Shown here: positions 1,393 to 61,909 of the stretch, piece after piece
Position numbering within the stretch: position 1 is the stretch's first letter
How the letters are laid out: the number at the start of each line of letters is the position of its first letter
Source: Alphaproteobacteria bacterium
GTDB lineage: Bacteria > Pseudomonadota > Alphaproteobacteria > UBA828
Direction: 5' to 3'
Length of the DNA: 64,000 nucleotides
Assembly: GCA_022826665.1 (NCBI GenBank)
Contig: JAJDUK010000005.1
Coordinates: 55,262-119,261, forward strand
Notes under the pieces: generated by a model
The model's database searches: none
Told to the model about the DNA's origin: nothing
Seen by the model: only the letters and a program-made list of their open reading frames with translations
Made by a program: the position numbers and the translations under genes

Positions 1393-1408
1393 CGTCCGGA
1401 TCAGGGCA

Positions 1409-16857: not shown

Positions 16858-16934
16858 TGGCGCGCCCGGCAGGACTCGAACCTGCGACCCCAAGCTTAGA
16901 AGGCTCGTGCTCTATCCGGCTGAGCTACGGGCGC
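16858..16934 (-). tRNA. tRNA-Arg (anticodon UCU)
   Basis: The reverse complement folds as a canonical cloverleaf. Acceptor GCGCCCG/CGGGCGC, D-arm GCTC/GAGC, anticodon stem CGAGC/GCTTG with loop CTTCTAA (anticodon TCT), T-arm GCAGG-TTCGAGT-CCTGC, encoded CCA. Confidence 0.85.
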
Positions 16935-19374: not shown

Positions 19375-19580
19375 AGGAGGCTGCGCGGAACCGGACCTGC
19401 GCTATCATGCGGCGCCGACAGGGAGAGAACTCCGGGCTAGCGCACATCAAGTCCTTCTGTGGCGTTTGCTGTCCTCTCCTGCCGCAGATAATATCCAACG
19501 TAATCAGTAGGATATCTCCAAACGACGATTCTTGCAGTCACCCGAAAGCTCCGCTAGTCTCATTCATAACGTGGGACAGA

Positions 19581-29438: not shown

Positions 29439-32391
29439 CGAACTTTGCTCCCCGAAACGTGATCAGAAAGTTTGCTCCGTCCAAAGGCATCCTCGCCTTG
29501 TTGGCCTCGTACTTTATTCGGTGACCTCCTGCCGACAAATTCGCCCGGCATAGATACAGTCCCACTCCGCGTCCCCCTCGTGCCTTTCGTGTGAAAAACA
29601 AGGTGAAGAGGTTGCTCACATCTTCTTCATCCACTCCGGGACCATTGTCAGAAACAACCACATCATCTTCGATAACGCCAAAAATGATCCGGCGCTTTTT
29701 TACCTCAGTGCTGGCCAGCCAATAGATGCTGTTGTTCACTAAGTTGATGAACACAGGATAAAGCCGGGACTGCTGATCAAATACCTGCAAACGAAGAAAC
29801 TCATCGGTGGCCTCCAACGCAATTTGGTTTCGCGCCAAAATCGGCTTAAAGAAGTCCGAGGTATATCGAAATACGTCTTCACCTGTGATCCATTTCTGAA
29901 TCTTTTGGCCCGCTAATCGGAGAGGTGACAGGAACCGCAGCTGGTCGGTAAGCCCTTCGTATGCAAATTCGATATCCTTCGCGGCTTTGCTTTCCCGGAT
30001 ATCTCCCGGCAAACGACGCAACCCATCAGCGAGAATGTCGTCGAAGGCTTGAAGATCATGTGCGACGATTTCCACCGCTATGCCAAGCTGCGCCAAGCTA
30101 TTCAGCCTGTCCAGCTCCGCGCGCAATTCGCCCACTTCGTCCGCGTCGAACGTCGCCAAATGCAGCAGGTCTACACTTTCCCCCAAGCTCTCGAGCGTTG
30201 TTATATATGGCAGCAATATATCCCGGTTCTCTTTGTCAAACCTCTCCTTCAATTTATCCATCGCGGCGGAAGCTTCCAAATACGGCATCGCTTGCGCGCG
30301 CACTCGATCCAGCAGCGGTTCGGCTTCTCGAGTGAAAGCGTCCATCCTCTCCTTGACCAGTTCTCTGACGCGTTCGTACTCTGCGCGCTGTAATCTCTCC
30401 GCTTCCTTACCCCAATTATCCAATCGCCGTTTGAGTTCTCGGCCTTGTCGGGTCAATTGTTCAAGGAGTAAATCCTCTGGCCTTGCCGGGTCGACACGTT
30501 CGATCTGCTCTTCCAACTTTTCTCGCAACGCGGCGACCGCGGTTCGGAAAGCACGATAGTTCCGTCGATACTCGACATATTGGCTCTCCAAGCGCGCGCT
30601 CAACTTCTTCGGCTTCACCGGTAGTGTGAAGTCAGAGAGGCGCCCTACAAACGCATCGAGGTCTTCCTTTGCTGGTCCAATTTGCCTTTCTCTCGTTATA
30701 TCAAGTGATTCCACATAGCTCTCAATCTCGTGAAGGACCGCCGGTAGCTCTTCCGCAAAGTCTTTCAAATTCGCGCGAAACGCGCGCGCCTGCCTCTTGT
30801 GAAGCTTCTCGCGTTCTTTATTTGCCTTTTGACGACGATTGTCCTCCCTGATGTCCGGTAAGAAGTCTCCGCGAAAACTGGACTCGGAACCAAAGTACAA
30901 CCTAGCGGATCTCTGCAAAACATTCGCAACGATTTCCCGAAACGTTTTTGCGGCATGGTTGTCTAGAAGCCCTTCTCTCCCCGCCTTGTCCTTGAGGTTC
31001 GGATTAGTCTCGCGTCCGATTGAGAGACGCCCGAACATTTGTCTGTGATTCCAGAATTCACGACCGGCACTCTTGCTGCGGCGTGACTCGATTTCGAAAA
31101 AATCGTTATCTGTACGGCCATAGGGAAGAACACGAAGACCGTCTCGAAAAACCATGAAGCCAGAGTACTTGTTCGCGAGATCGCGATAGCGGTTGAAGTC
31201 CGCTTCGGTGTGCGTGCTGTTTATGGCGGTGAATTCCATTGACGCGATATAGAGGCCGAATGGGCCCACCCGGGTGTCCGCGCGGGTCGGAATTGTTAGA
31301 TCGCGCGGTGGCGGAATGACGCATTCGTCCGTCAGGTCTTTTCCGAAAGCTCTAATGGAGCCTGTGAATACGCCGTCTTCTCCCACCCGCCCCACAATGC
31401 GATGCTCCATGTCATCAATTTGCCGTCTGTCGAACTGTCTCTCGGAACCGACAACTAAATCCGCTGTTCCATTTGTCCAGGCGCGTACGGCATACGAAAA
31501 CTGCGGATCGCTGTTCGACAATGCCTTATCCGAGGGATCTACGAAAGGGTCCACAAAACTCGAAAGCGTCTCGAAGAAACGATCACGCGTCGCCTGTTGC
31601 GCAACCTCACTGTAGTTCCGCTCGATCTGTGCCCGTAAATCATAGTTGAGGCCGGATATCAGTAGCGCCGTACCCCTATCCGACGCATCTGTCCACACAG
31701 GCCAAGGCTCAATGTGTTCCGGTTGGAAAGGCAGCTCAAGAATGTTGGCGATAATGTCTTCGGAGCGAGCGACCTGTATTCCACTTTCCTTCAGTCCGTC
31801 AATCTCCGACCAAGCCTCGGATATTCGAGCAGATCGCCCGGGTTCTCTCCCGCCCTTAACATTTTCCGACAGAGTCTTGGCCAGTAGCGGCAATTCTACG
31901 AATAAATCAGCTCTGTCTTTGAAATCCACAAGAGGAATTTGAATGTCAGAAAGATTGAGAAAGGGATTCTCAAACAATCGCCAATCGATCAGCGCCGCGA
32001 TGAAAGGCGAATCTTTTCTCTTGGACACCAGCAGCAACAAGGGACCCAAGTTCGCACACGAAAGGCGCCCGATTCCCTTTTGGCCTTGGCGTGGCCGAGG
32101 CTTCAGGCCGTTGCGATCCGCTCGACTTCTCGGATCTGCAGTGGCCTTCGCCTCAGTGCCCACCACCAGCCAGTGTCGCTGGAATTCCTCCCCGCTCATT
32201 CCATGCCCGTCGTCCACGATCGCCGCGACAGGCTCCGGGTCCTTGAAGAGGTGGAGTTCGACCATTCTCGCGTAGGCGTCATACGCATTCTTCCAGAGCT
32301 CGGATATCGCCGTCGGGCAATCCGCGATCTGCTCCCGACCCAGGTGGTCTACGGTCCGTGCCCGAGTCTGAAATGCGATTCCTTGAACCAT
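29428..32391 (-). CDS. dual Bergerat-fold ATPase: N-terminal MORC/MutL-like GHKL domain plus C-terminal histidine-kinase transmitter (HisKA-like H-box + HATPase_c)
   Basis: N-terminal ELWKNAYDA (ExxxNxxDA), DDGHGM, GQKGIGRLS. C-terminal IVAHDLQAFDD (H-box-like), INLVNNSIYW (N box), SDNGPGV (G1), LFTLFF (F), GGRGVGLYLCR (G2). Confidence 0.65.
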   Translation of the reverse strand: MVQGIAFQTRARTVDHLGREQIADCPTAISELWKNAYDAYARMVELHLFKDPEPVAAIVDDGHGMSGEEFQRHWLVVGTEAKATADPRSRADRNGLKPRPRQGQKGIGRLSCANLGPLLLLVSKRKDSPFIAALIDWRLFENPFLNLSDIQIPLVDFKDRADLFVELPLLAKTLSENVKGGREPGRSARISEAWSEIDGLKESGIQVARSEDIIANILELPFQPEHIEPWPVWTDASDRGTALLISGLNYDLRAQIERNYSEVAQQATRDRFFETLSSFVDPFVDPSDKALSNSDPQFSYAVRAWTNGTADLVVGSERQFDRRQIDDMEHRIVGRVGEDGVFTGSIRAFGKDLTDECVIPPPRDLTIPTRADTRVGPFGLYIASMEFTAINSTHTEADFNRYRDLANKYSGFMVFRDGLRVLPYGRTDNDFFEIESRRSKSAGREFWNHRQMFGRLSIGRETNPNLKDKAGREGLLDNHAAKTFREIVANVLQRSARLYFGSESSFRGDFLPDIREDNRRQKANKEREKLHKRQARAFRANLKDFAEELPAVLHEIESYVESLDITRERQIGPAKEDLDAFVGRLSDFTLPVKPKKLSARLESQYVEYRRNYRAFRTAVAALREKLEEQIERVDPARPEDLLLEQLTRQGRELKRRLDNWGKEAERLQRAEYERVRELVKERMDAFTREAEPLLDRVRAQAMPYLEASAAMDKLKERFDKENRDILLPYITTLESLGESVDLLHLATFDADEVGELRAELDRLNSLAQLGIAVEIVAHDLQAFDDILADGLRRLPGDIRESKAAKDIEFAYEGLTDQLRFLSPLRLAGQKIQKWITGEDVFRYTSDFFKPILARNQIALEATDEFLRLQVFDQQSRLYPVFINLVNNSIYWLASTEVKKRRIIFGVIEDDVVVSDNGPGVDEEDVSNLFTLFFTRKARGGRGVGLYLCRANLSAGGHRIKYEANKARMPLDGANFLITFRGAKFGDV

Positions 32392-35340: not shown

Positions 35341-35772
35341 TCAGCAGGCTCGTCCAACCGAACCCCGAAGACGCTCGATGTCCTCGCGAAAGGGATCGCG
35401 GCTTTCCGCATCGAAGTCCTCGGGATGCGAATCCATCCAGGCGATCGTGCGCTCGTAATATTCGATCGCCCGTTCGGTTTCGCCGCGCGCTTCGCAGACC
35501 ATCGCCTTACGCATGAGCCAATCGTGCACCTCGGGATAGCGGGTCCTCAGCTGCTCGCACACGGCGTCCGCTTCGTCGAGGCGGCCTTCATCGATCAGGT
35601 TGACGACGCTGTTCGAGAGCCGGTCCAGGTCGGTCTCGGCCCAGTGGTATCCATGTTGCGATGCCGCCGGCGCGGTAGGCACATAGGCGGCGCGGTCGCG
35701 GTCCCAGCAGCAGCGCTTGTACTTCCTGCCGCTGCCACAAGGGCAAGGTTGGTTCCTGCCGATCTTCACCAT
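35341..35772 (-). CDS. SEC-C metal-binding motif protein (YchJ-like)
   Basis: Start [22 protein letters not shown] (SEC-C motif) placed by frame arithmetic inside ORF 35341..36303. Confidence 0.6.
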
Positions 35773-35953
35773 TAACGCCTCGTCGCCGGCATTTCCGGCT
35801 CTCGGACCCCCGATCACATGTAGCCCGCTCGCCGGTCGCCAGCAACATTCCCGACCTTCCGCGGCGCGCCGGCAGGAGGCAGCGGCCGGCCTCTTCCGGG
35901 CGAATTCGGGGACCGGAAAGTGGCCCTCGCGCCACCGCCGGGGAGGCCGACCC

Positions 35954-36769
35954 ATGTCCAGCCGCATCGCCGACATTCTCGTGCCGCCGCGATGCCGGGA
36001 GATGATCCGCGCCGGCGCGCTCATCGCCATCAACACCAGCGGTGGCAAGGATTCACAGGCGATGACCATCCTGCTGTCGCGGATCGTTCCCCGCGACCAG
36101 ATCGTGGCGGTCCACGCCCCGCTCGGCGAGGTCGAGTGGCCGGGTACGATCGAGCATATCGAGGCAACGCTACCCGCCGGCGTGCCGCTCGTCATGGCGC
36201 CGGTTTCGTCCGGCAAGTCGCTGCTCGACCACGTCGAGGAGCGTGGCATGTTTCCAGGAGCCCGCCAAAGATGGTGTACGGCGGCCCTTAAACGGGGACC
36301 CATCGAGCGCGAACTGCGCCGCTATCTGAAGGCTCATCCCCGCTTCGGCGGGCGCCTCGTCAACGCCATGGGCATGCGCGCGGAGGAAAGCCCGGCACGT
36401 GCCAGGAAGGCGCCGTGGAGGCGCAACGACCGGATGAGCGTCGCGGGCCGCGAGGTCTTCGACTGGCTGCCGGTCTTCGACCTCTCCACGGACGACGTCT
36501 TCCGCGTCATCCACGACGCCGGCCAGTCGCCGCACTGGGCCTACGCCGCCGGCATGTCGCGGCTGAGTTGCAGCTTCTGCATCCTGGCGTCCCGCGCCGA
36601 CCTTCGCCGCGCGGCCGAGCTCCGCCCGGCGCTCTACCGCACCTATGTGGAGCTTGAGCGGCGCATCGATCACACGCTCTCGCCGTCGGGCATCCCCCTG
36701 CCGGAACTGACCGGCGTCTCCCCGGCAACCGCCCGCCACGACGACCCGACCGGCCTGAACAGCATCTGA
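35954..36769 (+). CDS. phosphoadenosine phosphosulfate reductase family protein (PP-loop ATPase)
   Basis: ATG at 35954. Has INTSGGKDS (SGGxDS PP-loop). Confidence 0.7.
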
Positions 36770-36915
36770 TTCCGGCGCCCCGGGCCGCACCGCCGCCCGG
36801 CAGCAGGCTTCCGCCCCATGCCTCCGGACACGACGAGCGGAGCGGCGCTGCCGGCCGGGCGAAGGCCGGGCGCCCGGAGGGCGTGGCCCGCGCCGCTTTC
36901 CCGCAATTCCGGAGC

Positions 36916-37947
36916 ATGCCCATGACGCTTCCCGAGACCATCTCCGCCGACTACACGCTGCGCCCGAGCGAGCTCGCCGAGGTGCTCGCCACCCTGGTCA
37001 AGGCCCGCCAGCCCACCCTGGTCTGGGGACCGCCCGGCGCGGCCAAGTCGATGATCGCCCGGCAGGTCGCCAGCGACCATGGCTACAACTACGTCGACAT
37101 CCGCGCGCTGCTGCTCGATCCCGTCGACCTGAGGGGCATCCCCTGGCGCGACGAGGACGGCCGCACGCGATGGGCGCCGCCGGTGTTCCTGCCGCCCACC
37201 GCCAGCACTGCATTGTGGATGCTCAATCTGGAAGAGCTGGCCTCCTGCGTGCCGATGGTCCAGGCCGCGCTCTACCAGCTCAGCCTGGAGCGCAAGTGCG
37301 GCGAGTACGAGCTGCCCGAGGGCGCCTCGATCATCGCCTGCAGCAACCGCGAGAACGACCGCGGCATCGTCCACCGGATGCCGACCCCGCTCGCTAACCG
37401 CTTCGTCCATCTGGAAATCCGGGTCGACGCGAAAGACTGGTGCGCCTGGGGCGCGGCGAACGGGATCGCCCCGGAAGTGCTGTTCTTCATCGAGCTCGAA
37501 CCGGAGCTGCTTCACCAGTTTCATCCGGAATCGAAGGAGCACGCCTTCCCGAGTCCCCGCAGCTGGGAGTTTGCCAGCAACATCGTCAAGAACCGCAACG
37601 GGCTCGATGCCGAGGTCGAGCGGGCGCTGTTCCGGGGCACGGTGGGCGAGGCCGCGGCGGTCGAGTTTACGTCGTTCCTGAAGGTATGGCGCGAGCTGCC
37701 CCATCCGAGGGCCGTCCTCGACGATCCCGGCAACGCCGACATCCCGGAGAACGCCAGCACGCTGATGGCTCTCTGCGGCTCGCTCTACCGCATGGCCTCC
37801 GACGTCAACCTGGACGCCATCGTGACCTACGCCACCCGGCTCCGGCGCGAGGTGGGCGAGTCGCTCGTCGGCGCCTGCGTGCGCCGCGAGCCCGCGCTCC
37901 AGCGCTCGCCCGCCTTCATCCGCTGGGCGGCGGCGAAAACCCAGTGA
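36916..37947 (+). CDS. MoxR-like AAA+ ATPase (AAA_5)
   Basis: Walker A GPPGAAKS and Walker B/sensor region IIACSNREND. Confidence 0.75.
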   Translation: MPMTLPETISADYTLRPSELAEVLATLVKARQPTLVWGPPGAAKSMIARQVASDHGYNYVDIRALLLDPVDLRGIPWRDEDGRTRWAPPVFLPPTASTALWMLNLEELASCVPMVQAALYQLSLERKCGEYELPEGASIIACSNRENDRGIVHRMPTPLANRFVHLEIRVDAKDWCAWGAANGIAPEVLFFIELEPELLHQFHPESKEHAFPSPRSWEFASNIVKNRNGLDAEVERALFRGTVGEAAAVEFTSFLKVWRELPHPRAVLDDPGNADIPENASTLMALCGSLYRMASDVNLDAIVTYATRLRREVGESLVGACVRREPALQRSPAFIRWAAAKTQ

Positions 37948-47723: not shown

Positions 47724-47999
47724 TCAGCTGTCCGTGCCGTCCGACCCCTCGCCTTGCCGCTGCCCGCCCCAGGGGTCGGGCGTGCTGTGGCCGCGGGCAA
47801 GGGGCCGTCGGAAGCACTTGATGCCGCTCAGTTCGAGATGGTCCACGATCTTCTCGGCGAACGGCCTGAGCCGGTCATGGTCGCCCGGCCCGCGCTTCTT
47901 CGGCCAGAAGCGCTCCACCTTGCGCAGCGCCATGTCGACCGAGAACACCAGGTCCTCCCGCGACACCGGGATGGTGTGTTTTCTCTCCATGCCTCGCAT
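47724..47999 (-). CDS. small conserved hypothetical protein, paralog A (91 aa)
   Basis: VSREDLVFSVDMALRKVERFWPKKRGPGDHDRLRPFAEKIVDHLELSGIKCFRRP is collinear with the protein at 50912..51166. Confidence 0.45.
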   Translation of the reverse strand: MRGMERKHTIPVSREDLVFSVDMALRKVERFWPKKRGPGDHDRLRPFAEKIVDHLELSGIKCFRRPLARGHSTPDPWGGQRQGEGSDGTDS

Positions 48000-48758: not shown

Positions 48759-49068
48759 TCCCCGGCCGCCCGGCGGCCTGAGCGTCCCGCTGCCGACGGC
48801 AGCGGCAGGGATCGGCGTCGGTGTTCCATCCCCCTTCTTCACGCGTGTCTCCGTCCGGAGTCCGGTCAGCCGGAGCCGGTCAGGCCGGCGGGTCGGCGCG
48901 GGAGGACGCGCGACTCGCCGGAATCCCGACTACGCCATTCCAGCCTGGAGACCGCCCATGCTCCACCGGATCCCCGACCACGACCGCGTCGTCCTGCGCC
49001 GCATCCAGGAGGCGGTTCGCTTCGTGCGGGTTTCGCTGCCCGACACCACCCCGGAAGGGAGCTGAGCC

Positions 49069-49713
49069 ATGCCGAGGATCATCAAGACCACCGTATTCAC
49101 CATCGACGAGCTCTCAGATGCCGCGAAGGAGAAAGCCCGCGCCTGGTATCGCGAGTCCTGTTTCGACTACGAGTGGTACGACTGCGTCTACGAGGATTTC
49201 CAGACCATCTGCGGGATCCTCGGCGTGACGCTCGCCACCAGCCCGGTACGCCTCTATGGCGGCGGCACGCGGGACAAGCAGCAAATTTTCTGGACCGGTT
49301 TCAGCTCACAGGGCGACGGCGCCTCGTTTGCCGGTCACTACAGCCACGCCAAAGGCGCCGCCAGGGCCATTCGCGCCTACGCGCCCAAGGATGACGAGCT
49401 GCACCGTATCGCAGACGCATTGCAGGCCGTTCAACGTCGGAATATCTGGCAGCTACACGCGTCCATTTGCCAGCGCGGCCGTTACTGCCACGAATACACC
49501 ATGACGATCGAGGTCGAGCGCGAAAGCCCAACCTGGCAGCCGCCGACGGACGATGCCGAGGACGCGGTGACCGAAGCGTTGCGCGATCTGGCACGCTGGC
49601 TCTACCGGCAGCTCCGGGACACCTACGAGGCCGAAACCTCCGACTGCGCCGTCGACGAGGCCATGGAGATCAACGGCTGGACCTTCACCGCCGAGGGAAA
49701 CAGGTTCGGCTGA
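49069..49713 (+). CDS. hypothetical protein (214 aa), ICE-associated
   Basis: Clean ORF with good codon usage. No motif recognised. Confidence 0.35.
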   Translation: MPRIIKTTVFTIDELSDAAKEKARAWYRESCFDYEWYDCVYEDFQTICGILGVTLATSPVRLYGGGTRDKQQIFWTGFSSQGDGASFAGHYSHAKGAARAIRAYAPKDDELHRIADALQAVQRRNIWQLHASICQRGRYCHEYTMTIEVERESPTWQPPTDDAEDAVTEALRDLARWLYRQLRDTYEAETSDCAVDEAMEINGWTFTAEGNRFG

Positions 49714-49855: not shown

Positions 49856-50902
49856 ATGAATCCAACGATCCCCATGACCGACCTTTACGCCATCAACGTT
49901 CACCTTCAGGAACGGCTCGAACGGGACTGGCGCGAGGAAGTTCGCGCCGCCGAGGCCGCGCGCTGGCTGGACGAAGCCGGCCTTCTGCGAAACTACAAGA
50001 ACGGCCTGCCGCTGCGCAGATTGCTGCGCGCCGGACGCATCGCAGGCCAGCAACAGCGCCCAGACCGGAAGAACGGCGCATGGTTCATTCGTCGGCTCGC
50101 GGCGTCCCGCGACCCCGACGCGATCCGTGACGCCCGCTATCGGCTCCGGCGCTGTCTCCCCATCGACCGTGGCGTGCTGCCGCCCGACTGGCCGGTGAAC
50201 CAGGGTCCCGCCGTCTTCTGGCAGGAACTGGGCAAGACGGTCGCGACCTTCGGATACTTGGAGCACATTCTGGCCTCCACCTGCTACGCGCTCCTCGCGA
50301 CGGGCGAGAGGGCCGTCACGCTTCTCGAGGCGAACGACCATGCAGCCATGCGCCGGTGGACCAAGCGACTCCTGCGCTCCCAGACCGACAGCATGCGCCC
50401 TCTCACCCGCGAGCTCGACCGGGTCCTGACCGAGACCGGCCTGGTTCCCCGCGCCGTTCGCGAGGATCTCGTAGCGCGTCTCGATGAACTCCGGCCCTGG
50501 CGCAACGCCCTCTGCCACGGCGCGTGGCTCAGCGTCGCCGAAGACGGTTCCGCCCGCCTTGAGCACCTCTATAGGGACGACGAGGACCTTCCCGTCGCGT
50601 TCGAGCGGAACGTTGGAGTCAAGGACCTGTCCGACGTCCGCGCACGCACGGTCGATATCACCATACGCATCGCCGAAGCAGCCTCCGTCGCCGGCCCCGC
50701 CTACACCCATATGGGCGGCGTCGGCTACGCCCTCGCCACCGTCATGCCGCGCATGTACGAGCCGCGGAACGCCCCTCCCGAACCGGAGCTGCTGCACGCG
50801 GCCCGGCGCGCGGTCGAGCGCGACAGCACGCTTAGCAAAGAGAGACTTACCCGGCGCCTGGGGGCGCTCGATAGCGGGATCGCGCCGACCGAACCGGAAT
50901 AG
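49856..50902 (+). CDS. hypothetical protein with C-terminal HEPN-like R-x4-H motif
   Basis: LDELRPWRNALCHGAWL contains RNALCH (Rx4H) within a predicted helical segment. Otherwise no motif recognised. Confidence 0.4.
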   Translation: MNPTIPMTDLYAINVHLQERLERDWREEVRAAEAARWLDEAGLLRNYKNGLPLRRLLRAGRIAGQQQRPDRKNGAWFIRRLAASRDPDAIRDARYRLRRCLPIDRGVLPPDWPVNQGPAVFWQELGKTVATFGYLEHILASTCYALLATGERAVTLLEANDHAAMRRWTKRLLRSQTDSMRPLTRELDRVLTETGLVPRAVREDLVARLDELRPWRNALCHGAWLSVAEDGSARLEHLYRDDEDLPVAFERNVGVKDLSDVRARTVDITIRIAEAASVAGPAYTHMGGVGYALATVMPRMYEPRNAPPEPELLHAARRAVERDSTLSKERLTRRLGALDSGIAPTEPE

Positions 50903-50911
50903 CGAAATCTC

Positions 50912-51166
50912 TCAACCTCCTCGGCCGGCCGCTCCGTTGGATGCCACCATCGGGCTGCGCCCCGGCGAACTGCCGAAGCAGCGCATCCCGCAGAGTTCGA
51001 CAAGTGCGACCTCGGCCGGTGCGACGAGTTTCAGCCGGCCGCGGTCGCCGGTTACCCGCTTCTCCGGCCGGCGCTTACTCGCCTCGCGCGGCGCTATTTC
51101 GACGGTGAACAGCAGGTCCTCCCGCGAGACCGGGCGGACGGATATCTCGTGCATCGGCTGAGCCAT
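50912..51166 (-). CDS. small conserved hypothetical protein, paralog B (85 aa)
   Basis: MAQPMHEISVRPVSREDLLFTVEIAPREASKRRPEKRVTGDRGRLKLVAPAEVALVELCGMRCFGS is collinear with paralog A at 47724..47999. Start placed by frame arithmetic inside ORF 50912..51655. Confidence 0.45.
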   Translation of the reverse strand: MAQPMHEISVRPVSREDLLFTVEIAPREASKRRPEKRVTGDRGRLKLVAPAEVALVELCGMRCFGSSPGRSPMVASNGAAGRGG

Positions 51167-51461
51167 CGCCTGAAAACGATTCGAGAATTCTAGCTGCCAC
51201 AGGCAACGCTGCGGCCGATTACCCCGCAGCTGTACTTTTCCGCCTTCAGGCCTGAACGCTCTCCGGGATCCCGCTGGCACCGCCTGGGCGGACCGTCCGC
51301 CGTTCCAGCGGCTCATTCCCTTCATCTTCACGTCTCCGTGCGTCTCGCCGGCGTCAGGACGGCCAGCCGGCCGTGGGCGGTCCGGTGGAGCTGGGCGGGA
51401 GGAATTCCTCCCCTCGGCGCATCCCGCCGGTCTTCCGCCCCAGCCGTACGGAGACCGCCCC

Positions 51462-54400
51462 ATGCTCGACGCCCCGCAGGCGCCGGACGCTCTCGCGCGT
51501 CCGCTTCCTCCCGCCATCGCCTCCGACACGTCCGCAACGCCGGCCCGCCCCGTCGTGGGCGATGCCCTGTTCGCCGCGGCCCAAACCCTGCTGCCGGTGC
51601 TGGAGGCCGGCCGGTCCCTCGACGCCGCGACGCTGCGGGACGCCATGACGGACACTTTCGGCGCGTCCGACTCCGAGGGCGCCTGGGTCTGGAAGGACGC
51701 CTACGAGGCCGCCGAAGCAGCCGTCGTGAACTTCATGCAGCGTTACGGCCGGGGCATGCGCCGGGCCGCCGGCGACGGCGGGCCGCGCCGCATGCTGGCG
51801 ATGCTGGAGGCCCTCGCGGCGCTGGAGCCCTCCCACACCAGGCGCTCCGAGGAGCAGGTGCGGCTCCAGCAGTTCTCGACGCCGCTGCCGCTCGCCTATG
51901 CCGCGCTCCAGGCCGCCGCGATTCGGCCGGGCGACATCGTGCTGGAGCCCTCGGCCGGCACCGGCATGCTGGCTGTGATGGCGCAGTGCGCGCTTGGCAA
52001 TTCCGCCGCCGGCAATCTCCATCTCAACGAATACGCTCGCGTCAGGGCACGGTTGCTGACACGGCTGTTCCCCGAGGCGGTGGTCACCGCGTTCAACGCC
52101 GAGACCATCGCGGATTGGCTGCGCGATGTCCGGCCCACCGTGGTGCTGATGAACCCGCCGTTTTCGGCGACGCCGGGGGTGCATCGCATCACCCGCGACG
52201 CCGACCTCCGGCATGTCCGCTCGGCCGCCTCCATGCTGCCGCCCGGCGGGCGCCTGGTGACCATCACATCCGCCCATTGCGCGCCCGGCGACACCGTCGG
52301 CCGTCTCGATCCCCCGGCCCGCTGCGTCTTCACCATGGCCATCGACGGCAGCGCCTATGCCCGCCGGGGCACCGCCTTTGACACCCGTCTCACCGTGCTG
52401 GAGCGCGGCGACGGACCCGACGTGGAGCTGGACGGGACAGCCCGCGCGGCCAACGCCGGCGAGCTGCTCGACGCGGTTATTTCGCGGGTGCCGCCTCGGT
52501 CACCCATCACTGTGCCGTCGGTCCCGGCCGGTCCTGCGCGCGACCTGTTCGGCAAACCGGTCGCCCCCGCGAAGCGGCGGGGTCCCAAGTCCGCCTCGAC
52601 CCCCGAGACCCGGCAGGCCCATGACTGGGGGGCGGTTTCGGAGCTGGTCGTCGAGACCGGGCCGGTCGATGCCGCGGCAGATGCCACTGCCAACGACGCC
52701 GGCCCCTACGCACCCTGGCGGCCGGGCGTCGTTCGTGTGCCGGGCGCGGTCGAGCATCCGACGCCGCTGGTGCAGTCCGCCGCCATGGCCGCCGTCCCGC
52801 ATCCCGCGCCGGCCTGGCGCCCGATGCTGCCGGAACGCGTGGTGACGGACGGCATGCTGTCCGACGCCCAGCTCGAGAGCGTCGTGCTGGCGGGGGAAGC
52901 CCATTCCCGCCATCTCGCCGCGGAGTACCGGATCGGATCCCAGTGGGAAACAGTCCACCGCTGCTCGAAGGACGGCGAGGACGGCAACGACGAGGAGGTC
53001 GATACCTCCCTCGTCACCCAGGAGAACGAGACCCTGTCGGAGCCGGTGCGCTTCCGCCGGGGCTGGATGCTGGGCGACGGCACCGGATGCGGCAAGGGCA
53101 GGCAGGTCGCCGCCATCATCCTCGACAACCGGCTGCGCGGCAGGAAGCGCGCCCTCTGGCTGTCGCAGTCGGACAAGCTGCTGGAGGACGCGCGTCGCGA
53201 CTGGACGGCGCTCGGTGGGCTGGACAGCGACATCATCCCGCTGGGCAATTTCCGCCAGGGGATGGAGATCCCGCTCGATGCGGGCATCCTGTTCGCGACA
53301 TACGCCACGCTGCGCTCGCCGTCCCGCCAGGGCAAGCCCTCGCGGCTGGAGCAGATCGTGGAATGGCTGGCCGGCTCGCTCGACGAGGAGGACCGCCACG
53401 CCTTCGACGGAGTGATCGTCTTCGACGAGGCGCACGCCATGGCGAACGCCGCCGGCTCCAAGTCCGAGCGCGGCGAGACCAAGCCGTCCCAGCAAGGTCG
53501 CGCCGGCCTGCGGCTCCAGAACGCCCTGCCGGACGCCCGCATCGCCTATGTCTCGGCCACCGGCGCGACGACGGTGCCGGGATTGGCGTATGCGGGTCGT
53601 CTGGGCTTGTGGGGCGCTGGCGAGACGCCATTCGAGAAGCGCGTCGAGTTCGTCTCCGCCATGGAGGCCGGCGGCGTCGCCGCGATGGAAGTCGTTGCAA
53701 GGGACCTGAAGGCGCTCGGTCTCTACCAGGCGAGAGCCTTGGCCTATGACGGGATCGAGGTCGACATCCTCGAACACCCGCTCACCCCTGAGCAGCGGCG
53801 CATCTACGACTCCTATGCCGGCGCCTTCAAGGTGATCCACGCCAACATCGAGGAGGCCCTGAAGGCCACCGGCATCGTCCAGGGCGAGGACACGCTGAAC
53901 AAGAACGCCAAGGCGGCCGCGCTCTCCGCCTTCGAGGGCACCAAGCAGCGCTTCTTCGGCCATCTTCTGACCGGCATGAAGTGCCCCTCGACGATCCGCG
54001 CGATCGAGGCCGACCTCGCCGCCGGCCGGTCGGCGGTCGTCCAGCTCGTGTCCACGGGCGAGGCATTGATGGAACGCCGCATCGCCGAGGTCCCGGCTTC
54101 CGAGTGGGACGACCTCAACATCGACCTCACGCCCCGGGACGCGATCCTGTCCTACCTGATGCACGCCTTCCCGGTGCAGTTGCAGGAGCCGTTCACCGAC
54201 GACGGCGGCAATCTCCTCAGCCGGCCCGCCAGGGACGCCGACGGCAACCCGGTGATCTGCAAGGAGGCCGAGGACCGGCGCGACGCGCTGATCGAGAAGC
54301 TGGCGGCGCTGCCGCCGGTGCCGACGGCGCTCGACCAGATCGTGCAGAAGTTCGGGCACGAGGCGGTCGCGGAGGTCACTGGCCGGTCGCGGCGCGTGCT

Positions 54401-55946
54401 CAGGATCACGGACGCCAAGGGCGAACGCCTCTCGCTGCGCAGCCGGCCCGCTTCTGCCAACCTCGCCGAGACCGCCGCATTCATGGACGGCGAGAAGCGC
54501 ATCCTCGTGTTCTCCATGGCGGGCGGCACGGGCCGCAGCTACCACGCCGACCTGTCCTGCGGGAACACCGAGCGCCGCATCCATTACTTGCTGGAGCCGG
54601 GCTGGCGCGCGGACCAGGCCATCCAGGGGCTCGGTCGCACCCACCGCACGCACCAGGCCAGCGCGCCGCTGTTCCGGCCCGTCACCACGGACGTGAAGGG
54701 CGAGCGCAGGTTCATCGCCACCATCGCACGGCGGCTCGACTCGCTCGGGGCCATCACGCGCGGCCAGCGCGACAGCCAGACCGCCATGGGCGGCAGCGAC
54801 GCCGCTCTGTTCCGCGAGAGCGACAATCTCGAGAGCGTCTATGCCAAGGCCGCATTGCGGCAGTTCTACGGCGCGCTCTGGCGCGGTTCCATCCAGGGCT
54901 GGAACGTTGAACGCTTCCAGGTTTCGACGGGTCTCAAGATCGTGCACGAGGGCGGGCTCAAGGACGACCTGCCGCCCATGCCGAAGTTCCTAAACCGGCT
55001 GCTGGCGCTGCCCATCGCCGAGCAGAACCAGCTTTTCGCCGAGCTGGAGGCGCGCATCGCGTCCAACATCGAGCAGGCCATCGAGGCCGGCAGCTACGAG
55101 GTCGGGGTCGAGACCGTGACCGCCGACTCGCTGGTAATCGCCGGCCGGGAAACCCTCTACGAGCATCCCGGCACTGGGGCGGCGACCGAGCTGGTCGAGA
55201 TCGTCCGCCGCAACAAGCTGGTGCCGCTGACCGCCGAGGACGCGCTGGAGATCGGCGAACGGGAGCCGGGACCGGACGGCAAGCCGCGCCTCGCCGTCAA
55301 CGCCCGCTCGAAGCGTGCCGCGGTCATCCTTCCGGCCGCGTCGCGGATGCTGGACGACGGCGGGGTGAAGGAGCGGGTGCGGCTTCTCCGTCCCGCGACC
55401 GGCGAGAGCATGGCGAAGGCCGAGCTCGACGCCTCCAACTGGCGCCGGGCCGACCAGGCACAGTGGCGGCGCATCTGGGACGCCGAGATCGCCGGCCTGC
55501 CGTCCCACCGGGACTCGCGCTTCTGGCTCGCCTCCGGCCTGCTGCTGCCCGTCTGGGACCGGCTGCCGGCCGAGAACATGCGGGTCCGCCGGCTCACCAG
55601 CGATGACGGCATCTCCCTCATCGGGCGCGTGCTGGACGCCGAGCAGGTGCGTGCCGTGCGCGCCGGGTTCGGCCTCGACGGCGGTCCCGCCATGACCGGC
55701 GCGGAGGCCTTCGCGGCAGTCATGGAGCGCGGCAACGCGCTCGCGCTCGCCAACGGCTGGCGGCTTGCCCGCCGGCGCCTGATGGGCCGCAACCGGATCG
55801 AGCTTGAGGGGCCGGCGGACACCGACCTGCCGGCGCTCCGGCGCATGGGATGCACGGTCGAGATTGTCTCGTTCCGGGCCCGGATATTCGCGCCCAACGC
55901 CGGCGCGATGGAACGCATCCTCGACCGCTGGCCGCTCGCCGCGTGA
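51462..55946 (+). CDS. N6-adenine/N4-cytosine-type DNA methyltransferase fused to SNF2/DEAH-box superfamily-2 helicase (ICE orphan MTase-helicase)
   Basis: 1494-aa ORF. VLEPSAGTGML (motif I) and VVLMNPPF (motif IV, NPPF) in the N-terminal 300 aa. GDGTGCGKGRQ (Walker A) and VIVFDEAHAM (DEAH) in the central helicase domain. Confidence 0.75.
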   Translation: MLDAPQAPDALARPLPPAIASDTSATPARPVVGDALFAAAQTLLPVLEAGRSLDAATLRDAMTDTFGASDSEGAWVWKDAYEAAEAAVVNFMQRYGRGMRRAAGDGGPRRMLAMLEALAALEPSHTRRSEEQVRLQQFSTPLPLAYAALQAAAIRPGDIVLEPSAGTGMLAVMAQCALGNSAAGNLHLNEYARVRARLLTRLFPEAVVTAFNAETIADWLRDVRPTVVLMNPPFSATPGVHRITRDADLRHVRSAASMLPPGGRLVTITSAHCAPGDTVGRLDPPARCVFTMAIDGSAYARRGTAFDTRLTVLERGDGPDVELDGTARAANAGELLDAVISRVPPRSPITVPSVPAGPARDLFGKPVAPAKRRGPKSASTPETRQAHDWGAVSELVVETGPVDAAADATANDAGPYAPWRPGVVRVPGAVEHPTPLVQSAAMAAVPHPAPAWRPMLPERVVTDGMLSDAQLESVVLAGEAHSRHLAAEYRIGSQWETVHRCSKDGEDGNDEEVDTSLVTQENETLSEPVRFRRGWMLGDGTGCGKGRQVAAIILDNRLRGRKRALWLSQSDKLLEDARRDWTALGGLDSDIIPLGNFRQGMEIPLDAGILFATYATLRSPSRQGKPSRLEQIVEWLAGSLDEEDRHAFDGVIVFDEAHAMANAAGSKSERGETKPSQQGRAGLRLQNALPDARIAYVSATGATTVPGLAYAGRLGLWGAGETPFEKRVEFVSAMEAGGVAAMEVVARDLKALGLYQARALAYDGIEVDILEHPLTPEQRRIYDSYAGAFKVIHANIEEALKATGIVQGEDTLNKNAKAAALSAFEGTKQRFFGHLLTGMKCPSTIRAIEADLAAGRSAVVQLVSTGEALMERRIAEVPASEWDDLNIDLTPRDAILSYLMHAFPVQLQEPFTDDGGNLLSRPARDADGNPVICKEAEDRRDALIEKLAALPPVPTALDQIVQKFGHEAVAEVTGRSRRVLRITDAKGERLSLRSRPASANLAETAAFMDGEKRILVFSMAGGTGRSYHADLSCGNTERRIHYLLEPGWRADQAIQGLGRTHRTHQASAPLFRPVTTDVKGERRFIATIARRLDSLGAITRGQRDSQTAMGGSDAALFRESDNLESVYAKAALRQFYGALWRGSIQGWNVERFQVSTGLKIVHEGGLKDDLPPMPKFLNRLLALPIAEQNQLFAELEARIASNIEQAIEAGSYEVGVETVTADSLVIAGRETLYEHPGTGAATELVEIVRRNKLVPLTAEDALEIGEREPGPDGKPRLAVNARSKRAAVILPAASRMLDDGGVKERVRLLRPATGESMAKAELDASNWRRADQAQWRRIWDAEIAGLPSHRDSRFWLASGLLLPVWDRLPAENMRVRRLTSDDGISLIGRVLDAEQVRAVRAGFGLDGGPAMTGAEAFAAVMERGNALALANGWRLARRRLMGRNRIELEGPADTDLPALRRMGCTVEIVSFRARIFAPNAGAMERILDRWPLAA

Positions 55947-56037: not shown

Positions 56038-56307
56038 ATGACCGCGCAGACCCTGCCGGACAATCCGAATTTCTGTTTCTGCCCGGCCTACGACGTCGAG
56101 ACCGAGGTGCAGCAGATCAGAATCGTCATCGAAGGCCTCGCCGGGCACGTCCCGACCGCGCTCATCTCCCTCGACCTCGACGACGCCCTCAGCATCTGCG
56201 ACAAGCTGAACCGCCGGCTTGGCCTCGACCGGGAAGCTTGGACCGCCATGGTCGCCGCCTCCATGCGCGCCGAGGACGAGGACCCCGAGAGCGACCCCTG
56301 GCATTGA
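56038..56307 (+). CDS. hypothetical small protein (89 aa)
   Basis: ATG at 56038 by frame arithmetic, with an AAGGAG RBS. Confidence 0.35.
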   Translation: MTAQTLPDNPNFCFCPAYDVETEVQQIRIVIEGLAGHVPTALISLDLDDALSICDKLNRRLGLDREAWTAMVAASMRAEDEDPESDPWH

Positions 56308-56565: not shown

Positions 56566-57747
56566 ATGCGGCGCCATCTTGTGGTTTGCACCGACGGAAC
56601 TTGGAACACGCCTGATCGGCGTGACCGCGGACGGATTGTCCCGAGCAACGTGGTCAAGGTGGCACGGGCGGTTGCCGGCTTCAATACCTCCGCTATCGAG
56701 CAAAAGGTCTATTACGATGCCGGCGTTGGCACGGGGGATTGGTGGGATCGAATCAAGGGCGGCGCCTTCGGATTCGGGCTATCGCAAAACGTGAAACAGG
56801 CCTACGTGGCCCTCGGGGAGATCTTCGCACGGGGTGACAAAATATTCCTGTTCGGCTTTTCGCGCGGTGCCTATACGGCGCGCAGTCTCGCTGGCCTGAT
56901 CGGACTGTGCGGAATTCCGGATAGTCAGAAAGGCAATGTCACGAGGATCGCCGAGGAGGCATTCAGGATTTACCGCTTAAGCCTTCGATCGCTCGACAGA
57001 GCAAATCAAGCGGAACAACACATCGAGACGTACTCCCACACGAAGAACGGCCGTGTTCTCAACAAAATCCACTTCATCGGCGTCTGGGATACCGTGGGCG
57101 CCCTCGGAATCCCGCTCGGGTTGTTCAGGGCATACAACCGGTACCGATTCCAGTTCCACGACACAGATCTGGGTGGCCATATCGAGAGAGCGTACCACGC
57201 GCTGGCGATCGACGAACGCCGCCGACCGTTCAAACCGACGCTATGGTTAGCCGCCAATGCACCGACGAAACAGGTCGTGGAACAGTTCTGGTTTCCGGGG
57301 GTTCATACCAACATCGGGGGCGGCTATATCGACCATGGGCTGTCGGATCGGGCGTTTCTGTGGATGTGCATCAAGGCGCGGGACGCAGGTCTCGGGTTCA
57401 AGGCCGACTACATGAACCTTCGCGTGATCCCCGACTATCACGGCGAGCTGAGAAATTCCCGGGTGGGGTTTTACAGACTGCTGCCTGCGAAAACGCGTTT
57501 GATCGGGACGACCAAAGCCGTGGGAGAGGCGATACATTACTCGGCGGAGGAGCGGTTCGAACATGCGACGGAACGCAACTACCAGGAGGGGCACGCGAGC
57601 AAGAACCTGGGCCCGCTCTTAAAGGATGCCGGGAAGATTGGAGGGCCGAGTGTGGCGCCTGCACTGAGAGCGGAGAAAGCGTTTCACAGCCGCCTGTCTG
57701 GGTACTTTTGGAAGGATGGCGGAGGATCGCCCAAGTCGTTCCCGTAA
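56566..57747 (+). CDS. DUF2235 domain alpha/beta hydrolase (Tle1-like phospholipase fold)
   Basis: LVVCTDGTWN N-terminus, GFSRGAYTAR (GxSxG nucleophile elbow), GVWDTVGALG. Lower GC than neighbours. Confidence 0.7.
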   Translation: MRRHLVVCTDGTWNTPDRRDRGRIVPSNVVKVARAVAGFNTSAIEQKVYYDAGVGTGDWWDRIKGGAFGFGLSQNVKQAYVALGEIFARGDKIFLFGFSRGAYTARSLAGLIGLCGIPDSQKGNVTRIAEEAFRIYRLSLRSLDRANQAEQHIETYSHTKNGRVLNKIHFIGVWDTVGALGIPLGLFRAYNRYRFQFHDTDLGGHIERAYHALAIDERRRPFKPTLWLAANAPTKQVVEQFWFPGVHTNIGGGYIDHGLSDRAFLWMCIKARDAGLGFKADYMNLRVIPDYHGELRNSRVGFYRLLPAKTRLIGTTKAVGEAIHYSAEERFEHATERNYQEGHASKNLGPLLKDAGKIGGPSVAPALRAEKAFHSRLSGYFWKDGGGSPKSFP

Positions 57748-58582: not shown

Positions 58583-59119
58583 ATGCCGACATTGCGATAT
58601 GCGGGGATTGGGGCGCGTGCGACGCCGGTGGCCGTGCTGGCGGACATGACTGTGCTGGCGGGATGGCTGGCCCGGACCGGCTGGCATCTTTCGAGCGGTG
58701 GGGCGAATGGAGCCGACACTGCGTTCGCCGAGGGTACGCCCGCCGGGCAGAGGACGATCTGGCTGCCGTGGCGGGACTGTAACGGGAATCGGGGGACGGA
58801 CTGCCGGGTGTTGTCGGCTGAGGCGATGGCGGAGTGCATCGAGATCGCGGCGCCCCTGCATCCGGCGTGGGAGCGGTGTTCGCCGGCCGTCCGCATGCTG
58901 CATGCCAGGAACGCGGCGGTGTTGCTTGGCGACACGCTGGGCCGGCCCGTCGATGCAGTCGTGTGCTGGAGCGAACGCGGCGCGGTTACCGGAGGCACTG
59001 GCATGGCTATCCGTATCGCCGAGGCCCGCGGCATCCCGGTGCTGAACCTGGGATCGATGACCCCGCGTGCCGTCTGCGAGCGCCTGGCCGCAATCCGCCG
59101 CGCCGTCCATCGGTCATAG
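58583..59119 (+). CDS. SLOG superfamily (DprA/Smf/LOG-like Rossmann fold) protein
   Basis: YAGIGARATP...LSSGGANGADTAFAEG (GGAxGxD) with IWLPW. ATG at 58583 by frame arithmetic. The 414-aa antisense ORF 58081..59325 is judged spurious. Confidence 0.55.
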   Translation: MPTLRYAGIGARATPVAVLADMTVLAGWLARTGWHLSSGGANGADTAFAEGTPAGQRTIWLPWRDCNGNRGTDCRVLSAEAMAECIEIAAPLHPAWERCSPAVRMLHARNAAVLLGDTLGRPVDAVVCWSERGAVTGGTGMAIRIAEARGIPVLNLGSMTPRAVCERLAAIRRAVHRS

Positions 59120-60826: not shown

Positions 60827-61909
60827 ATGATCCGCTTCACCCAGGGCGACCTCTTCGCCTCCGGCTGCGAGGCTCTCGTCAATCCCGTCAACTGCGTCGG
60901 CGTGATGGGCAGGGGGCTCGCCCTCCAGTTCCGGCACCGCTTCCCGGCCAACTACGAGGCCTATCGGCACGCCTGCGCGCGCCGCGAGGTCCGGCCCGGG
61001 CTCTGCTTCGTCTTCGACGCCGGCGCCGGGCCGGCGCGCTTCGTCGTCAACTTCCCAACCAAGCGCCACTGGCGCGACCGCAGCCGCATTGAGGACATCG
61101 CCGCCGGGCTCGACGACCTCGCCGGCATCCTCCGCCGCCGCGCCATCGGCTCCGTCGCGATCCCGCCGCTCGGCTGCGGCCTGGGCGGACTGCCCTGGCC
61201 CGCCGTCCGCTCGCTGCTGGTCGACCGCCTCGCATCCTGCTCCGGCGTCTCGATCATCATCTTCGAGCCTGGCGGACCGGAGCCGAGGCGCGCTTGCGGC
61301 GGGGCGAAGCGCGGCAGGGCCGGAGGGAGTCCGCCGCCGGCAACGGAGGATGACGGAATGCGTATCTACCACCGCGACGAGGTTTGCCCGTTCCGGTTTA
61401 CCCGGGCGGCCTGGGGCGAATTCAGCAATTTCGCGCCGCTGACGGCGCCGATCGCCGCCGGCCCGTGGACGTTTGCGACGTCCGAGCACCTGTACCAGGC
61501 GGCGAAGTTCGGCGCCGCCCCGGCGGTGCAGCGCCGGATCGCCGGCGCGCCGACGGCGCGCGAGGCGGCCGCCATCGGGCGCGGCGAGCGCACCGGCGTC
61601 GATCCCCGCTGGAACGAGCAGCGGGTGAACGTCATGCGCTGGGTGCTGCGCATGAAGCGCGAGACCAACGCCGCCGCGATCGATGCCGCCCTCGCCGCGA
61701 CCGGCGAGCGCGCCATCGTCGAGGTCTCGACCCGCGACCCCTGGTGGGGCGCCAGGCCGGACGGCGACCGCTATCGCGGCGCGAACGTGCTCGGCCGGCT
61801 CTGGATGGAGCTCCGCCAGCAGCTGTGCGACGGCGATCCCGCCGCGCGCGCCGCCGCGTGGGCCGGGCGCATCCGCGTCGGCCGGCTGGCCGATGCGCCG
61901 CGCGCCTGA
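60827..61909 (+). CDS. macro domain fused to NADAR (YbiA-like) domain protein
   Basis: N-terminal LFASGCEALVNPVNCVGVMGRGLALQF (macro glycine loop). C-terminal EFSNFAP...SEHLYQAAKF (NADAR ExxYQxxK block). AGGAG RBS 9 nt upstream of ATG 60827. Confidence 0.7.
   Translation: MIRFTQGDLFASGCEALVNPVNCVGVMGRGLALQFRHRFPANYEAYRHACARREVRPGLCFVFDAGAGPARFVVNFPTKRHWRDRSRIEDIAAGLDDLAGILRRRAIGSVAIPPLGCGLGGLPWPAVRSLLVDRLASCSGVSIIIFEPGGPEPRRACGGAKRGRAGGSPPPATEDDGMRIYHRDEVCPFRFTRAAWGEFSNFAPLTAPIAAGPWTFATSEHLYQAAKFGAAPAVQRRIAGAPTAREAAAIGRGERTGVDPRWNEQRVNVMRWVLRMKRETNAAAIDAALAATGERAIVEVSTRDPWWGARPDGDRYRGANVLGRLWMELRQQLCDGDPAARAAAWAGRIRVGRLADAPRA

Follow-up and report, generated by a model that had tools for sequence, protein, structure and literature searches.

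A predicted methyltransferase-Strawberry-notch ATPase fusion protein encoded in the backbone of an integrative conjugative element

Which activities are joined in a single protein of 1494 amino acids (aa) carried by an integrative conjugative element (ICE), and what could they do for that element? The question is raised by a stretch of 64,000 nucleotides (nt) from an Alphaproteobacteria bacterium (assembly GCA_022826665.1, contig JAJDUK010000005.1, positions 55,262 to 119,261 of the forward strand), the whole of which is called the window below. A first-pass annotation, made from the letters alone, had described the open reading frame (ORF) at 51462-55946 as an orphan fusion of a methyltransferase (MTase) and an SNF2 helicase. 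Our analysis predicts two enzymes in one polypeptide, an HsdM/TaqI-like N6-adenine MTase and a superfamily 2 (SF2) ATPase of the Strawberry-notch (Sbno) type. The gene, here called MTase-Sbno, is a backbone gene of the ICE. We propose that its product may serve as a translocase-coupled adenine methylase of low specificity that protects or processes element DNA during establishment, a role that we hold with about even confidence. The gene itself is given as follows.

51462..55946, + strand: MTase-Strawberry-notch gene, 1494 aa plus stop; supported by the ORF list, a GC content of 0.91 at third codon positions, the identical public protein P0001 and a single gene in the public annotation

The frame opens with ATG, and the ORF listing contains no in-frame alternative start upstream. 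GC content at codon positions 1, 2 and 3 is 0.72, 0.52 and 0.91, respectively, a coding signature in a genome of about 70% GC. For comparison we used the 80 best related genomic loci together with two plasmid loci (82 in total). A single full-length uninterrupted frame was kept in 75 of these 82, the GGAG Shine-Dalgarno sequence at 51450-51453 was invariant across 35 orthologous loci, and substitutions were concentrated at third codon positions (for example, 101, 54 and 356 at positions 1, 2 and 3 against locus L003). An identical 1494-aa protein (P0001) is already in NCBI/ENA, encoded by two independent public contigs. Because of this identical protein, the 75 intact loci and the third-position bias, 51462-55946 is not a chance frame; the intact ORF read by the first-pass annotation is real, and the whole of it is under strong purifying selection. 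No paralog of the gene was found within the window.

Along this frame, the following domains and motifs were recognized or predicted.

51555..51818, + strand: N-terminal helical domain, residues 32-119 (conserved W75, W77, K78, Y81 and E85); AlphaFold predicted local distance difference test (pLDDT) above 90 over residues 31-120, helices 32-48, 55-66 and 77-119; also supported by conservation
51852..52421, + strand: class I S-adenosylmethionine (SAM)-dependent MTase core, residues 131-320, gamma-class amino-MTase
51873..51884, + strand: motif X, FSTP, residues 138-141; Q136, Q137, S139, T140 and P141 invariant
51933..51965, + strand: motif I, D-VLEPSAGTG, residues 158-168, SAM binding; D158, V160-S164, G166 and T167 invariant
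52152..52163, + strand: motif IV, NPPF, residues 231-234, catalytic; M230-S235 invariant in 50 sequences, N231-F234 in 24 full-length ones
52422..52751, + strand: low-confidence linker, residues 321-430; pLDDT below 50 for 375-430, few conserved columns
52752..53810, + strand: Sbno ATPase lobe 1 (Pfam AAA_34, PF13872), residues 431-783; 8.5e-108, 360.3 bits against a cut-off of 27
53073-53102, + strand: Walker A, GDGTGCGKGR, residues 538-547
53424-53435, + strand: DEAH, residues 655-658
53811..54326, + strand: helical insert between the ATPase lobes, residues 784-955; no Pfam match, long helices in a low-confidence model, moderately conserved
54327..55115, + strand: Sbno ATPase lobe 2 (Pfam Helicase_C_4, PF13871), residues 956-1218; 7.5e-92, 308.3 bits against a cut-off of 30.5
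Within lobe 2: motif VI, QG-GR--R, residues 1055-1062; Q1055, G1056, G1058, R1059 and R1062 invariant
55116..55943, + strand: basic C-terminal region, residues 1219-1494 (276 aa), isoelectric point (pI) 9.9; W1327, W1339, G1359 and W1365 invariant

The fusion in one polypeptide is thereby confirmed, with an N-terminal MTase joined to an SF2 helicase-like ATPase. The motifs that had been read earlier also stood: MTase motif I and NPPF, both read within the first 300 residues, lie at 161-168 and 231-234, Walker A and DEAH lie centrally at 538-547 and 655-658, and all four are invariant in homologues of 41-54% identity. The sequence past DEAH, by contrast, is 836 aa and not the roughly 700 aa given earlier.

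In the MTase half, the motifs follow the order X-I-II-IV, with FSTP at 138-141, LEPSAGTG (the core of motif I) at 161-168, NE at 189-190 and NPPF at 231-234. FSTP, the TP motif, had been missing from the motif list of the first-pass annotation. FSTP, motif I, NE and NPPF are all invariant in 50 sequences that are only 41-48% identical to the query. The TP motif marks EcoKI/TaqI-like adenine MTases, and TP together with NPP[YF] defines the class (PMC5512222). The fold of the core is closest to solved DNA adenine MTases, and the AlphaFold model shows the helical domain at residues 32-119, a compact seven-stranded core at 142-315 and a helix at 332-342, followed by the disordered linker; the helical domain occupies the position of the HsdM helical N-domain. 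The LPD36 domain of methylase-helicase dyads consists of four helices, the second and third of which are separated by a GxG[GAS] motif. Here, a loop FGASD-EGAW is conserved between helices 55-66 and 77-119, and the exact GxGU motif of LPD36 is absent.

Searches of other libraries also gave matches to the core. In PHROGs, residues 132-320 match MTase segments inside giant phage proteins (profiles of 1259-3925 positions, E 6e-15 to 4e-6), the matches begin exactly at residues 132-138, and some of these families are annotated as DNA methyltransferase. In PADLOC, the core matches the MADS methylase mad2 at 8.6e-9, while the helicase half matches nothing; membership of a known defence system was set aside, since PADLOC matched the mad2 MTase core only. 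The NCBIfam scan gave nothing relevant to the MTase half. Because of the invariant FSTP, motif I, NE and NPPF and the PHROG and mad2 matches, we favour a gamma-class N6-adenine DNA MTase of the HsdM/TaqI type for this half.

The same evidence bears on another reading of the N-terminal domain, namely that it methylates RNA or protein, as an m2G/m6A RNA methylase or a HemK-like glutamine methylase, together with an RNA helicase-like motor. Relatives are named 'predicted RNA methylase' in JGI and NCBI sources, the top PDB sequence match is TrmN (3tma), and the sole Pfam match is MTS, a small-domain family with rRNA and protein MTases among its members. However, FSTP is diagnostic of the EcoKI/TaqI group (PMC5512222), the matching PHROG families include ones annotated as DNA methyltransferase, and the genomic context consists entirely of DNA-handling genes, so that we consider an RNA or protein substrate very unlikely.

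Two of the related loci carry a broken gene. In L075 (6100-6792 and 10001-13882) and L057 (10001-13882), the break lies near residue 200-230, close to NPPF, and about 3.2 kb separate the two gene halves in L075. Such a break, possibly caused by an insertion element, would remove the MTase but spare the ORF of the helicase.

Turning to the C-terminal half, the domain scan that the first-pass annotation had named as a check was run, and it returned Pfam AAA_34 and Helicase_C_4 far above their cut-offs. Because both models match, we assign the protein by its sequence to the Sbno ATPase family as a full member; AAA_34 was matched by 24 of 24 family members. In 24 full-length sequences of 42-54% identity, G540, G542, G544, K545, G546, D655, E656, H658 and S698-T700 (SAT) are invariant. 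The motor is very probably active, because Walker A, DEAH, SAT and motif VI are all invariant at this level of identity.

Neither Pfam SNF2 (PF00176) nor Helicase_C (PF00271) matched at E<=0.1, and ResIII matched weakly (1.2e-6). A PDB search with a profile of the 24 full-length homologues found no SNF2 or other helicase chain at E<=1; the Sbno motor is therefore without a solved relative at the sequence level. Two studies, Iyer et al. 2017 (PMC5512222) and Aravind et al. 2012 (PMC3417536), count Sbno among the members of a broadly drawn SWI2/SNF2 radiation. Thus the earlier label 'SNF2 helicase' stands as far as an SF2 helicase-like motor goes, and as SNF2 it is defensible only in the broad sense of the clade, because Sbno is placed there by published phylogeny alone; without a Pfam SNF2 match, the motor is better described as Strawberry-notch type.

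The C-terminal 276 aa gave no Pfam, NCBIfam or PHROG match. The Sbno family as described by Iyer et al. 2017 has a C-terminal winged helix, SnoC-wHTH (PMC5512222). Our AlphaFold model of residues 430-1494, built from a shallow alignment (30 sequences, two clades), reached a pLDDT of 50 and a predicted template modelling score (pTM) of 0.31, and Foldseek with this low-confidence model returned nothing at E<=1e-3; the confidence is too low for assigning a C-terminal fold or for comparison with SnoC-wHTH or with the SNF2-type helical inserts in both RecA lobes.

MTases and SF2 motors are also coupled in restriction-modification (R-M) systems, and we compared the protein with these. In the model, the MTase core appears closest in structure to HsdM/TaqI-type adenine MTases, minus the recognition module: no target-recognition domain (TRD) follows strand 7, only helix 332-342 and the disordered linker, and no HsdS-like specificity subunit was found among the neighbouring genes. 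LlaBIII is likewise a single chain with both an SF2 motor and an adenine MTase. Unlike type I HsdM and the fused type ISP, IIG and IIB enzymes (EcoKI M, EcoR124I M, LlaBIII, BsaXI, MmeI), the protein has no HsdS, TRD or nuclease, and its order is MTase then helicase; its helicase is unrelated in sequence to HsdR-type and ISP motors, the family profile having found no PDB helicase chain. No nuclease domain was detected in the protein or in the ten genes on either side by Pfam, NCBIfam, PADLOC and PHROGs, four neighbours being unnamed by function (g49069, g49856, a small minus-strand ORF and the 89-aa gene); these small neighbours took no functional names from Pfam, NCBIfam or PHROGs. The label 'orphan' is therefore a fair one, as was the earlier remark that no cognate restriction gene is adjacent, and the locus is not an R-M system.

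The position of the gene within the ICE follows from its surroundings, which include an integrase near a tRNA gene.

19362-20753, + strand: P4-type tyrosine integrase (Arm-DNA-bind_3 + Phage_int_M + Phage_integrase)
16858-16934, minus strand: tRNA-Arg (TCT), 2.4 kb from the integrase, with an aminotransferase gene between

The native contig also encodes a TrwC-type relaxase, about 8.5 kb past the Toprim gene and on the opposite strand. The genes leading up to MTase-Sbno, nearly all on the + strand, encode ParB-like (818 aa), HATPase-like (586-677 aa), RadC, DUF6573 and SRAP proteins, g49069 and g49856. Past it come an 89-aa acidic protein, a Tle1-like lipase, DprA-like, SSB, an AlkB-like dioxygenase, Macro+NADAR, DUF7146-Toprim, DUF4326 and YAcAr. 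Over the 82 loci, the stable backbone consists of ParB, HATPase-like, RadC, DUF6573, g49069, MTase-Sbno, the 89-aa gene, a variable slot, DprA-like, SSB, AlkB and Toprim. The module is co-oriented with SSB, and it gathers DNA-handling genes (ParB-like, RadC, SRAP, DprA-like, SSB, AlkB-like, Macro/NADAR and Toprim), among them genes that act on single-stranded or damaged DNA.

A shorter form of this module was found on the plasmids pMLb, pBSY18_2 and pTHAF37_f, whose proteins are about 50% identical to ours: ArdC, ParB, small genes, MTase-Sbno, Toprim and DUF2493. Such plasmid and ICE proteins are annotated as 'strawberry notch family protein' or 'bifunctional class I SAM-dependent methyltransferase/DEAD/DEAH box helicase'. 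Examples are WP_044547306.1 from Mesorhizobium japonicum pMLb and WP_069049292.1 from Blastomonas pBSY18_2, which have about 1430-1500 aa, the same domain order, 50-54% end-to-end identity and, as here, ParB upstream and Toprim downstream. The window protein differs from them in belonging to a distinct sub-clade (75-93% identity, from metagenome-assembled genomes (MAGs)), and the 89-aa gene and cargo slot separate its gene from Toprim. In pTHAF37_f, the start of Toprim overlaps the stop of Sbno. In cluster P0472 (1368 aa), Toprim_3 and DUF7146 are in the same polypeptide as the Sbno domains, which could mean that the two are naturally fused or that the frame reads through into the gene that usually follows. 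The layouts of the three annotated plasmids gave no decision between a leading and a lagging position.

The family is large. More than 7000 homologous proteins were found at E<=1e-10, and a search with the N-terminal region by itself matched 3118 cluster representatives (clusters at 50% identity); the MTase-Sbno fusion is the rule, because the full-length ones among these all have 1414-1559 aa. Matches occur in 666 plasmid records, mostly from Rhodobacterales, Rhizobiales and Sphingomonadales, of which 416 are full-length and 355 are typed conjugative, and relatives are encoded by 448 genomic stretches. These counts bear out the earlier statement that MTase-helicases recur on ICEs and plasmids, and the window protein is an already deposited, typical member of this computationally described family.

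The closest relatives (75-93% identity) are in MAGs of Alphaproteobacteria, Ca. Binatia, Thermodesulfobacteriota and Gammaproteobacteria, and the 80 best loci come from 48 assemblies, 19 of which carry 2-5 copies. Since such near-identical elements sit in MAGs of several phyla, the sequences imply recent cross-phylum spread, together with tolerance of multiple resident copies. The bin names RHO1-3_bin and SB0661_bin hint, as names, at sponge metagenomes.

How, then, could the two enzymes act on an ICE? By analogy with SF2 and SWI2/SNF2-like enzymes, the Sbno ATPase would move the protein along DNA, and the tethered methylase would methylate adenines at numerous sites and show little preference for sequence, the latter being proposed because no recognition domain was detected. 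Methylation would be timed to newly transferred or replicating element DNA, and, judging by how closely the gene is linked to Toprim, the protein may act together with the priming of the complementary strand. As the outcome, recipient restriction would be blunted or element DNA would be marked, either of which would promote establishment.

This scheme corresponds to the 'methylase-helicase dyad' of Iyer et al. 2017, whose archetype is DarB of phage P1 and whose hypothesis includes the protection of transferred DNA (PMC5512222), here with an Sbno-type motor. Like DarB, the protein has an N-terminal gamma-class adenine MTase (TP, NPP[YF]) and a C-terminal SF2 ATPase and is carried by an invading element, in this case an ICE. 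In contrast to the DarB dyads, its motor is of the Sbno type and belongs to neither main SNF2-like family of polyvalent proteins, and it is not a virion protein; because it has no further effector domains, we do not regard it as polyvalent. P1 DarB is not a detectable relative, because the only hits of tblastn (E<=1e-5) among 50,697 phage records were to phages of Vibrio and Bacteroides. None of these matches covered at least 80% of the query, so no full-length copy was found in phages, and full-length homology to DarB or other phage proteins was dropped.

Published work offers two further precedents for such a role. Leading regions are enriched in orphan MTases (Samuel et al. 2024, PMC11541004), and M.EcoGIX, a promiscuous N6-methyladenine (m6A) enzyme, experimentally protects pESBL on entry (Fomenkov et al. 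2020, PMC7736820). Among experimentally studied enzymes, M.EcoGIX and M.BceJIII, plasmid-borne single-strand-specific m6A MTases, are the best precedent for such a role; they differ in not being fused to a helicase and have a suggested association with DNA Pol I (PMC7736820), and we compare them by role, not by sequence.

Several points weigh against this proposal. We found no experimental study of the MTase-Sbno family in the literature, and no methylation, ATPase or anti-restriction activity has been reported for it; the earlier statement that such proteins are thought to protect transferred DNA thus holds as a published hypothesis (PMC5512222). No curated DNA-MTase model matched above its threshold, Pfam MTS (PF05175) reaching 0.0023 and 18 bits against a cut-off of 23, and in fold space RNA methylases are among the near neighbours of the MTase domain. 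Sequence recognition could reside in the C-terminal 276 aa or in the N-terminal helical domain, and the model of the helicase and C-terminal part is too poor to show the domain arrangement. Finally, with TrwC lying past Toprim and on the other strand, the module could be transferred late and not early, and in pTHAF37_f the module adjoins repABC, not a relaxase.

The last point also bears on a different role, in which the protein is a motor for replication or establishment. Sbno would remodel element DNA or clear proteins from it, or would assist the Toprim primase and the ParB-like protein in complementary-strand synthesis, partition or regulation, with methylation as an epigenetic mark by which the element controls itself. 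DUF7146-Toprim always follows the gene and is at times translationally coupled (pTHAF37_f) or fused (P0472) to it, a large ParB-like protein precedes it, and repABC adjoins it in pTHAF37_f. The helicase half is about 84% identical across alphaproteobacterial genera, compared with 41-48% in the N-terminal region, a far higher conservation than that of the MTase half. In eukaryotes, Sbno proteins have their roles in transcription and chromatin contexts, which would fit such a motor. On the other hand, the catalytic residues of the MTase are invariant, SSB, AlkB, Macro/NADAR, SRAP, RadC and the plasmid ArdC are typical of anti-defence or DNA-protection islands, and no replication phenotype is known. 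We consider this role unlikely relative to protection of element DNA by methylation.

A role in defence has to be weighed together with further genes on the element.

26617-32391, minus strand: C5-cytosine DNA methylase (PF00145, 1.4e-60), a 589-aa Response_reg_2 protein and a 987-aa HATPase_c_3/HEF_HK/HATPase_c protein
35717-36769, + strand: PAPS-reductase-family protein, at the start of the high-GC backbone
36883-37947, + strand: MoxR/AAA-like ATPase, following it

The three genes at 26617-32391 look like a foreign defence-like cassette carried as cargo. They are co-oriented and lie in a low-GC island at 26-35 kb (GC about 0.52 compared with about 0.70). In PADLOC, the PAPS-reductase-family protein matches BrxP (1.1e-13), SspD (2.5e-13) and DndC.

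MTase-Sbno might itself be part of an element-borne system for defence or exclusion. Such a system would be related to type I, type ISP, BREX or MADS systems, in a split form or one lacking the nuclease, and would mark self DNA and interfere with rival phages or plasmids. Consistent with this, PADLOC reports the mad2 match at 8.6e-9, the structural neighbours of the MTase include LlaBIII (type ISP), MmeI, DrdV and PglX of BREX, the coupling of MTase and helicase is typical of R-M systems (PMC5512222), and other defence-like cargo is present (the C5-MTase island and the PAPS-reductase/BrxP-like gene). However, neither the protein nor its conserved neighbours contain a nuclease domain or other effector, the PADLOC match is limited to the MTase core, the helicase half having none, the gene is in the conserved backbone and not in the variable cargo slot, and several copies per genome are hard to reconcile with exclusion. 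We therefore consider a defence function improbable, more so than a replication motor.

We also considered a stronger form of the methylase role, a 'DNA painter', in which the Sbno motor would drag a recognition-less methylase along DNA and deposit dense, nearly sequence-independent m6A that defeats many restriction systems at once. The protein would perhaps be delivered with, or act with, the Toprim primase, and it would represent the prokaryotic ancestor-type of the eukaryotic SBNO remodelers. If true, this could help explain near-identical elements (75-93%) in several phyla and up to five copies per genome. We regard it as rather doubtful.

SBNO1 and SBNO2 have the AAA_34 + Helicase_C_4 ATPase core in common with the window protein. 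They are transcriptional co-regulators and have no MTase domain. No counterpart of the bacterial C-terminal 276 aa is annotated in them. For the eukaryotic proteins, an origin from ATPases of prokaryotic selfish elements has been inferred (PMC3417536).

The family is of more interest than the window copy. It is present on hundreds of conjugative plasmids and ICEs, yet we found no experiment addressing it. If the proposed role is true, the family would be a widespread determinant of how far plasmids and ICEs of Alphaproteobacteria can spread, symbiosis and catabolic plasmids among them. A further gain would be a biochemical handle on the Strawberry-notch ATPase fold, which has no sequence-detectable solved structure and whose eukaryotic descendants SBNO1/2 are poorly understood.

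Around MTase-Sbno, the remaining genes of the module are as follows.

49069..49713, + strand: g49069, 214 aa, in 42 of 82 loci and mostly directly upstream; phrog_5162 (unknown function), 5.8e-38
56038..56307, + strand: 89-aa acidic protein, pI 4.2, starting 91 nt downstream and directly 3' of the gene in 75 of 82 loci; phrog_16631 (unknown function), 3.3e-5; also a public gene call
56566-57747, + strand: type VI secretion system (T6SS) Tle1-like phospholipase (PF09994, 9.2e-78), in a stretch of GC 0.625 after the MTase-Sbno/89-aa pair
58583-59119, + strand: DprA-like protein (phrog_768, 6.6e-48), a backbone gene just upstream of SSB
60827-61909, + strand: Macro + NADAR protein, 360 aa, between the AlkB-like gene and Toprim; from public gene calls

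The Tle1-like gene is absent from all 82 related loci and is therefore cargo in the variable slot, which ranges from about 1 to about 9 kb in relatives. The DprA-like gene gives the module a second single-strand-DNA-handling function besides SSB. The Macro + NADAR protein, with its ADP-ribose-removing domains, could counter ADP-ribosylating defence toxins. The ParB-like protein also matches the PRTRC-system ParB model.

Upstream, MTase-Sbno faces a small divergent gene, and a conserved block lies in the gap between them.

50912-51166, minus strand: small divergent ORF ('paralog B'), 80-84 aa; public callers start it at the ATG at 51154, giving 80 aa
47724-47999, minus strand: paralog of the small divergent ORF (tblastn, 47% identity, E 1.7e-11)
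51336..51461, + strand: conserved non-coding block ending in the GGAG Shine-Dalgarno sequence; candidate promoter/operator or 5' leader

The divergent arrangement and the gap of 295 bp reported earlier were found as described with the ORF start at 51166; with the start at 51154 the gap is 307 bp. Copies of the small-gene family occur in 12 of the 82 loci, and among those listed only L033 has the small gene beside MTase-Sbno, while g49856 occurs in 6 of 82; from their distribution, both appear to be accessory. The ORF at 47724-47999 diverges from SRAP just as that at 50912-51166 diverges from MTase-Sbno, and in relatives the former is usually paired with SRAP. Neither of the two ORFs matched a family in Pfam, NCBIfam or PHROGs.

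The first-pass annotation had placed a promoter in the 295-bp region. Conservation is limited to the proximal ~125-150 nt (51336-51461), which have 70-85% nucleotide identity in most orthologous loci regardless of the upstream gene. This part stands as a candidate, whereas the rest of the region is not conserved, the small gene is accessory, and a scan of 50800-51600, limited to the sigma-70 promoter type, found no sigma-70-like promoter and no terminator. A structured RNA or single-stranded DNA promoter was rejected: single-sequence DNA folding gave z = -2.2 and -1.4, and RNAalifold on 35 orthologous regions gave no pairs. Rfam over the whole window returned one tRNA only and no family in the upstream block. 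The palindrome GGGAGGAATTCCTCCC (51397-51412) was likewise rejected as an operator, this segment being missing or different in most orthologues.

The block at 51336-51461 recurs in part, inverted, upstream of g49069 (48952-49001), and pieces of it recur elsewhere within L003, L016, L038, L043 and L058, upstream of other module genes. This recurring GC-rich block may be a shared regulatory element.

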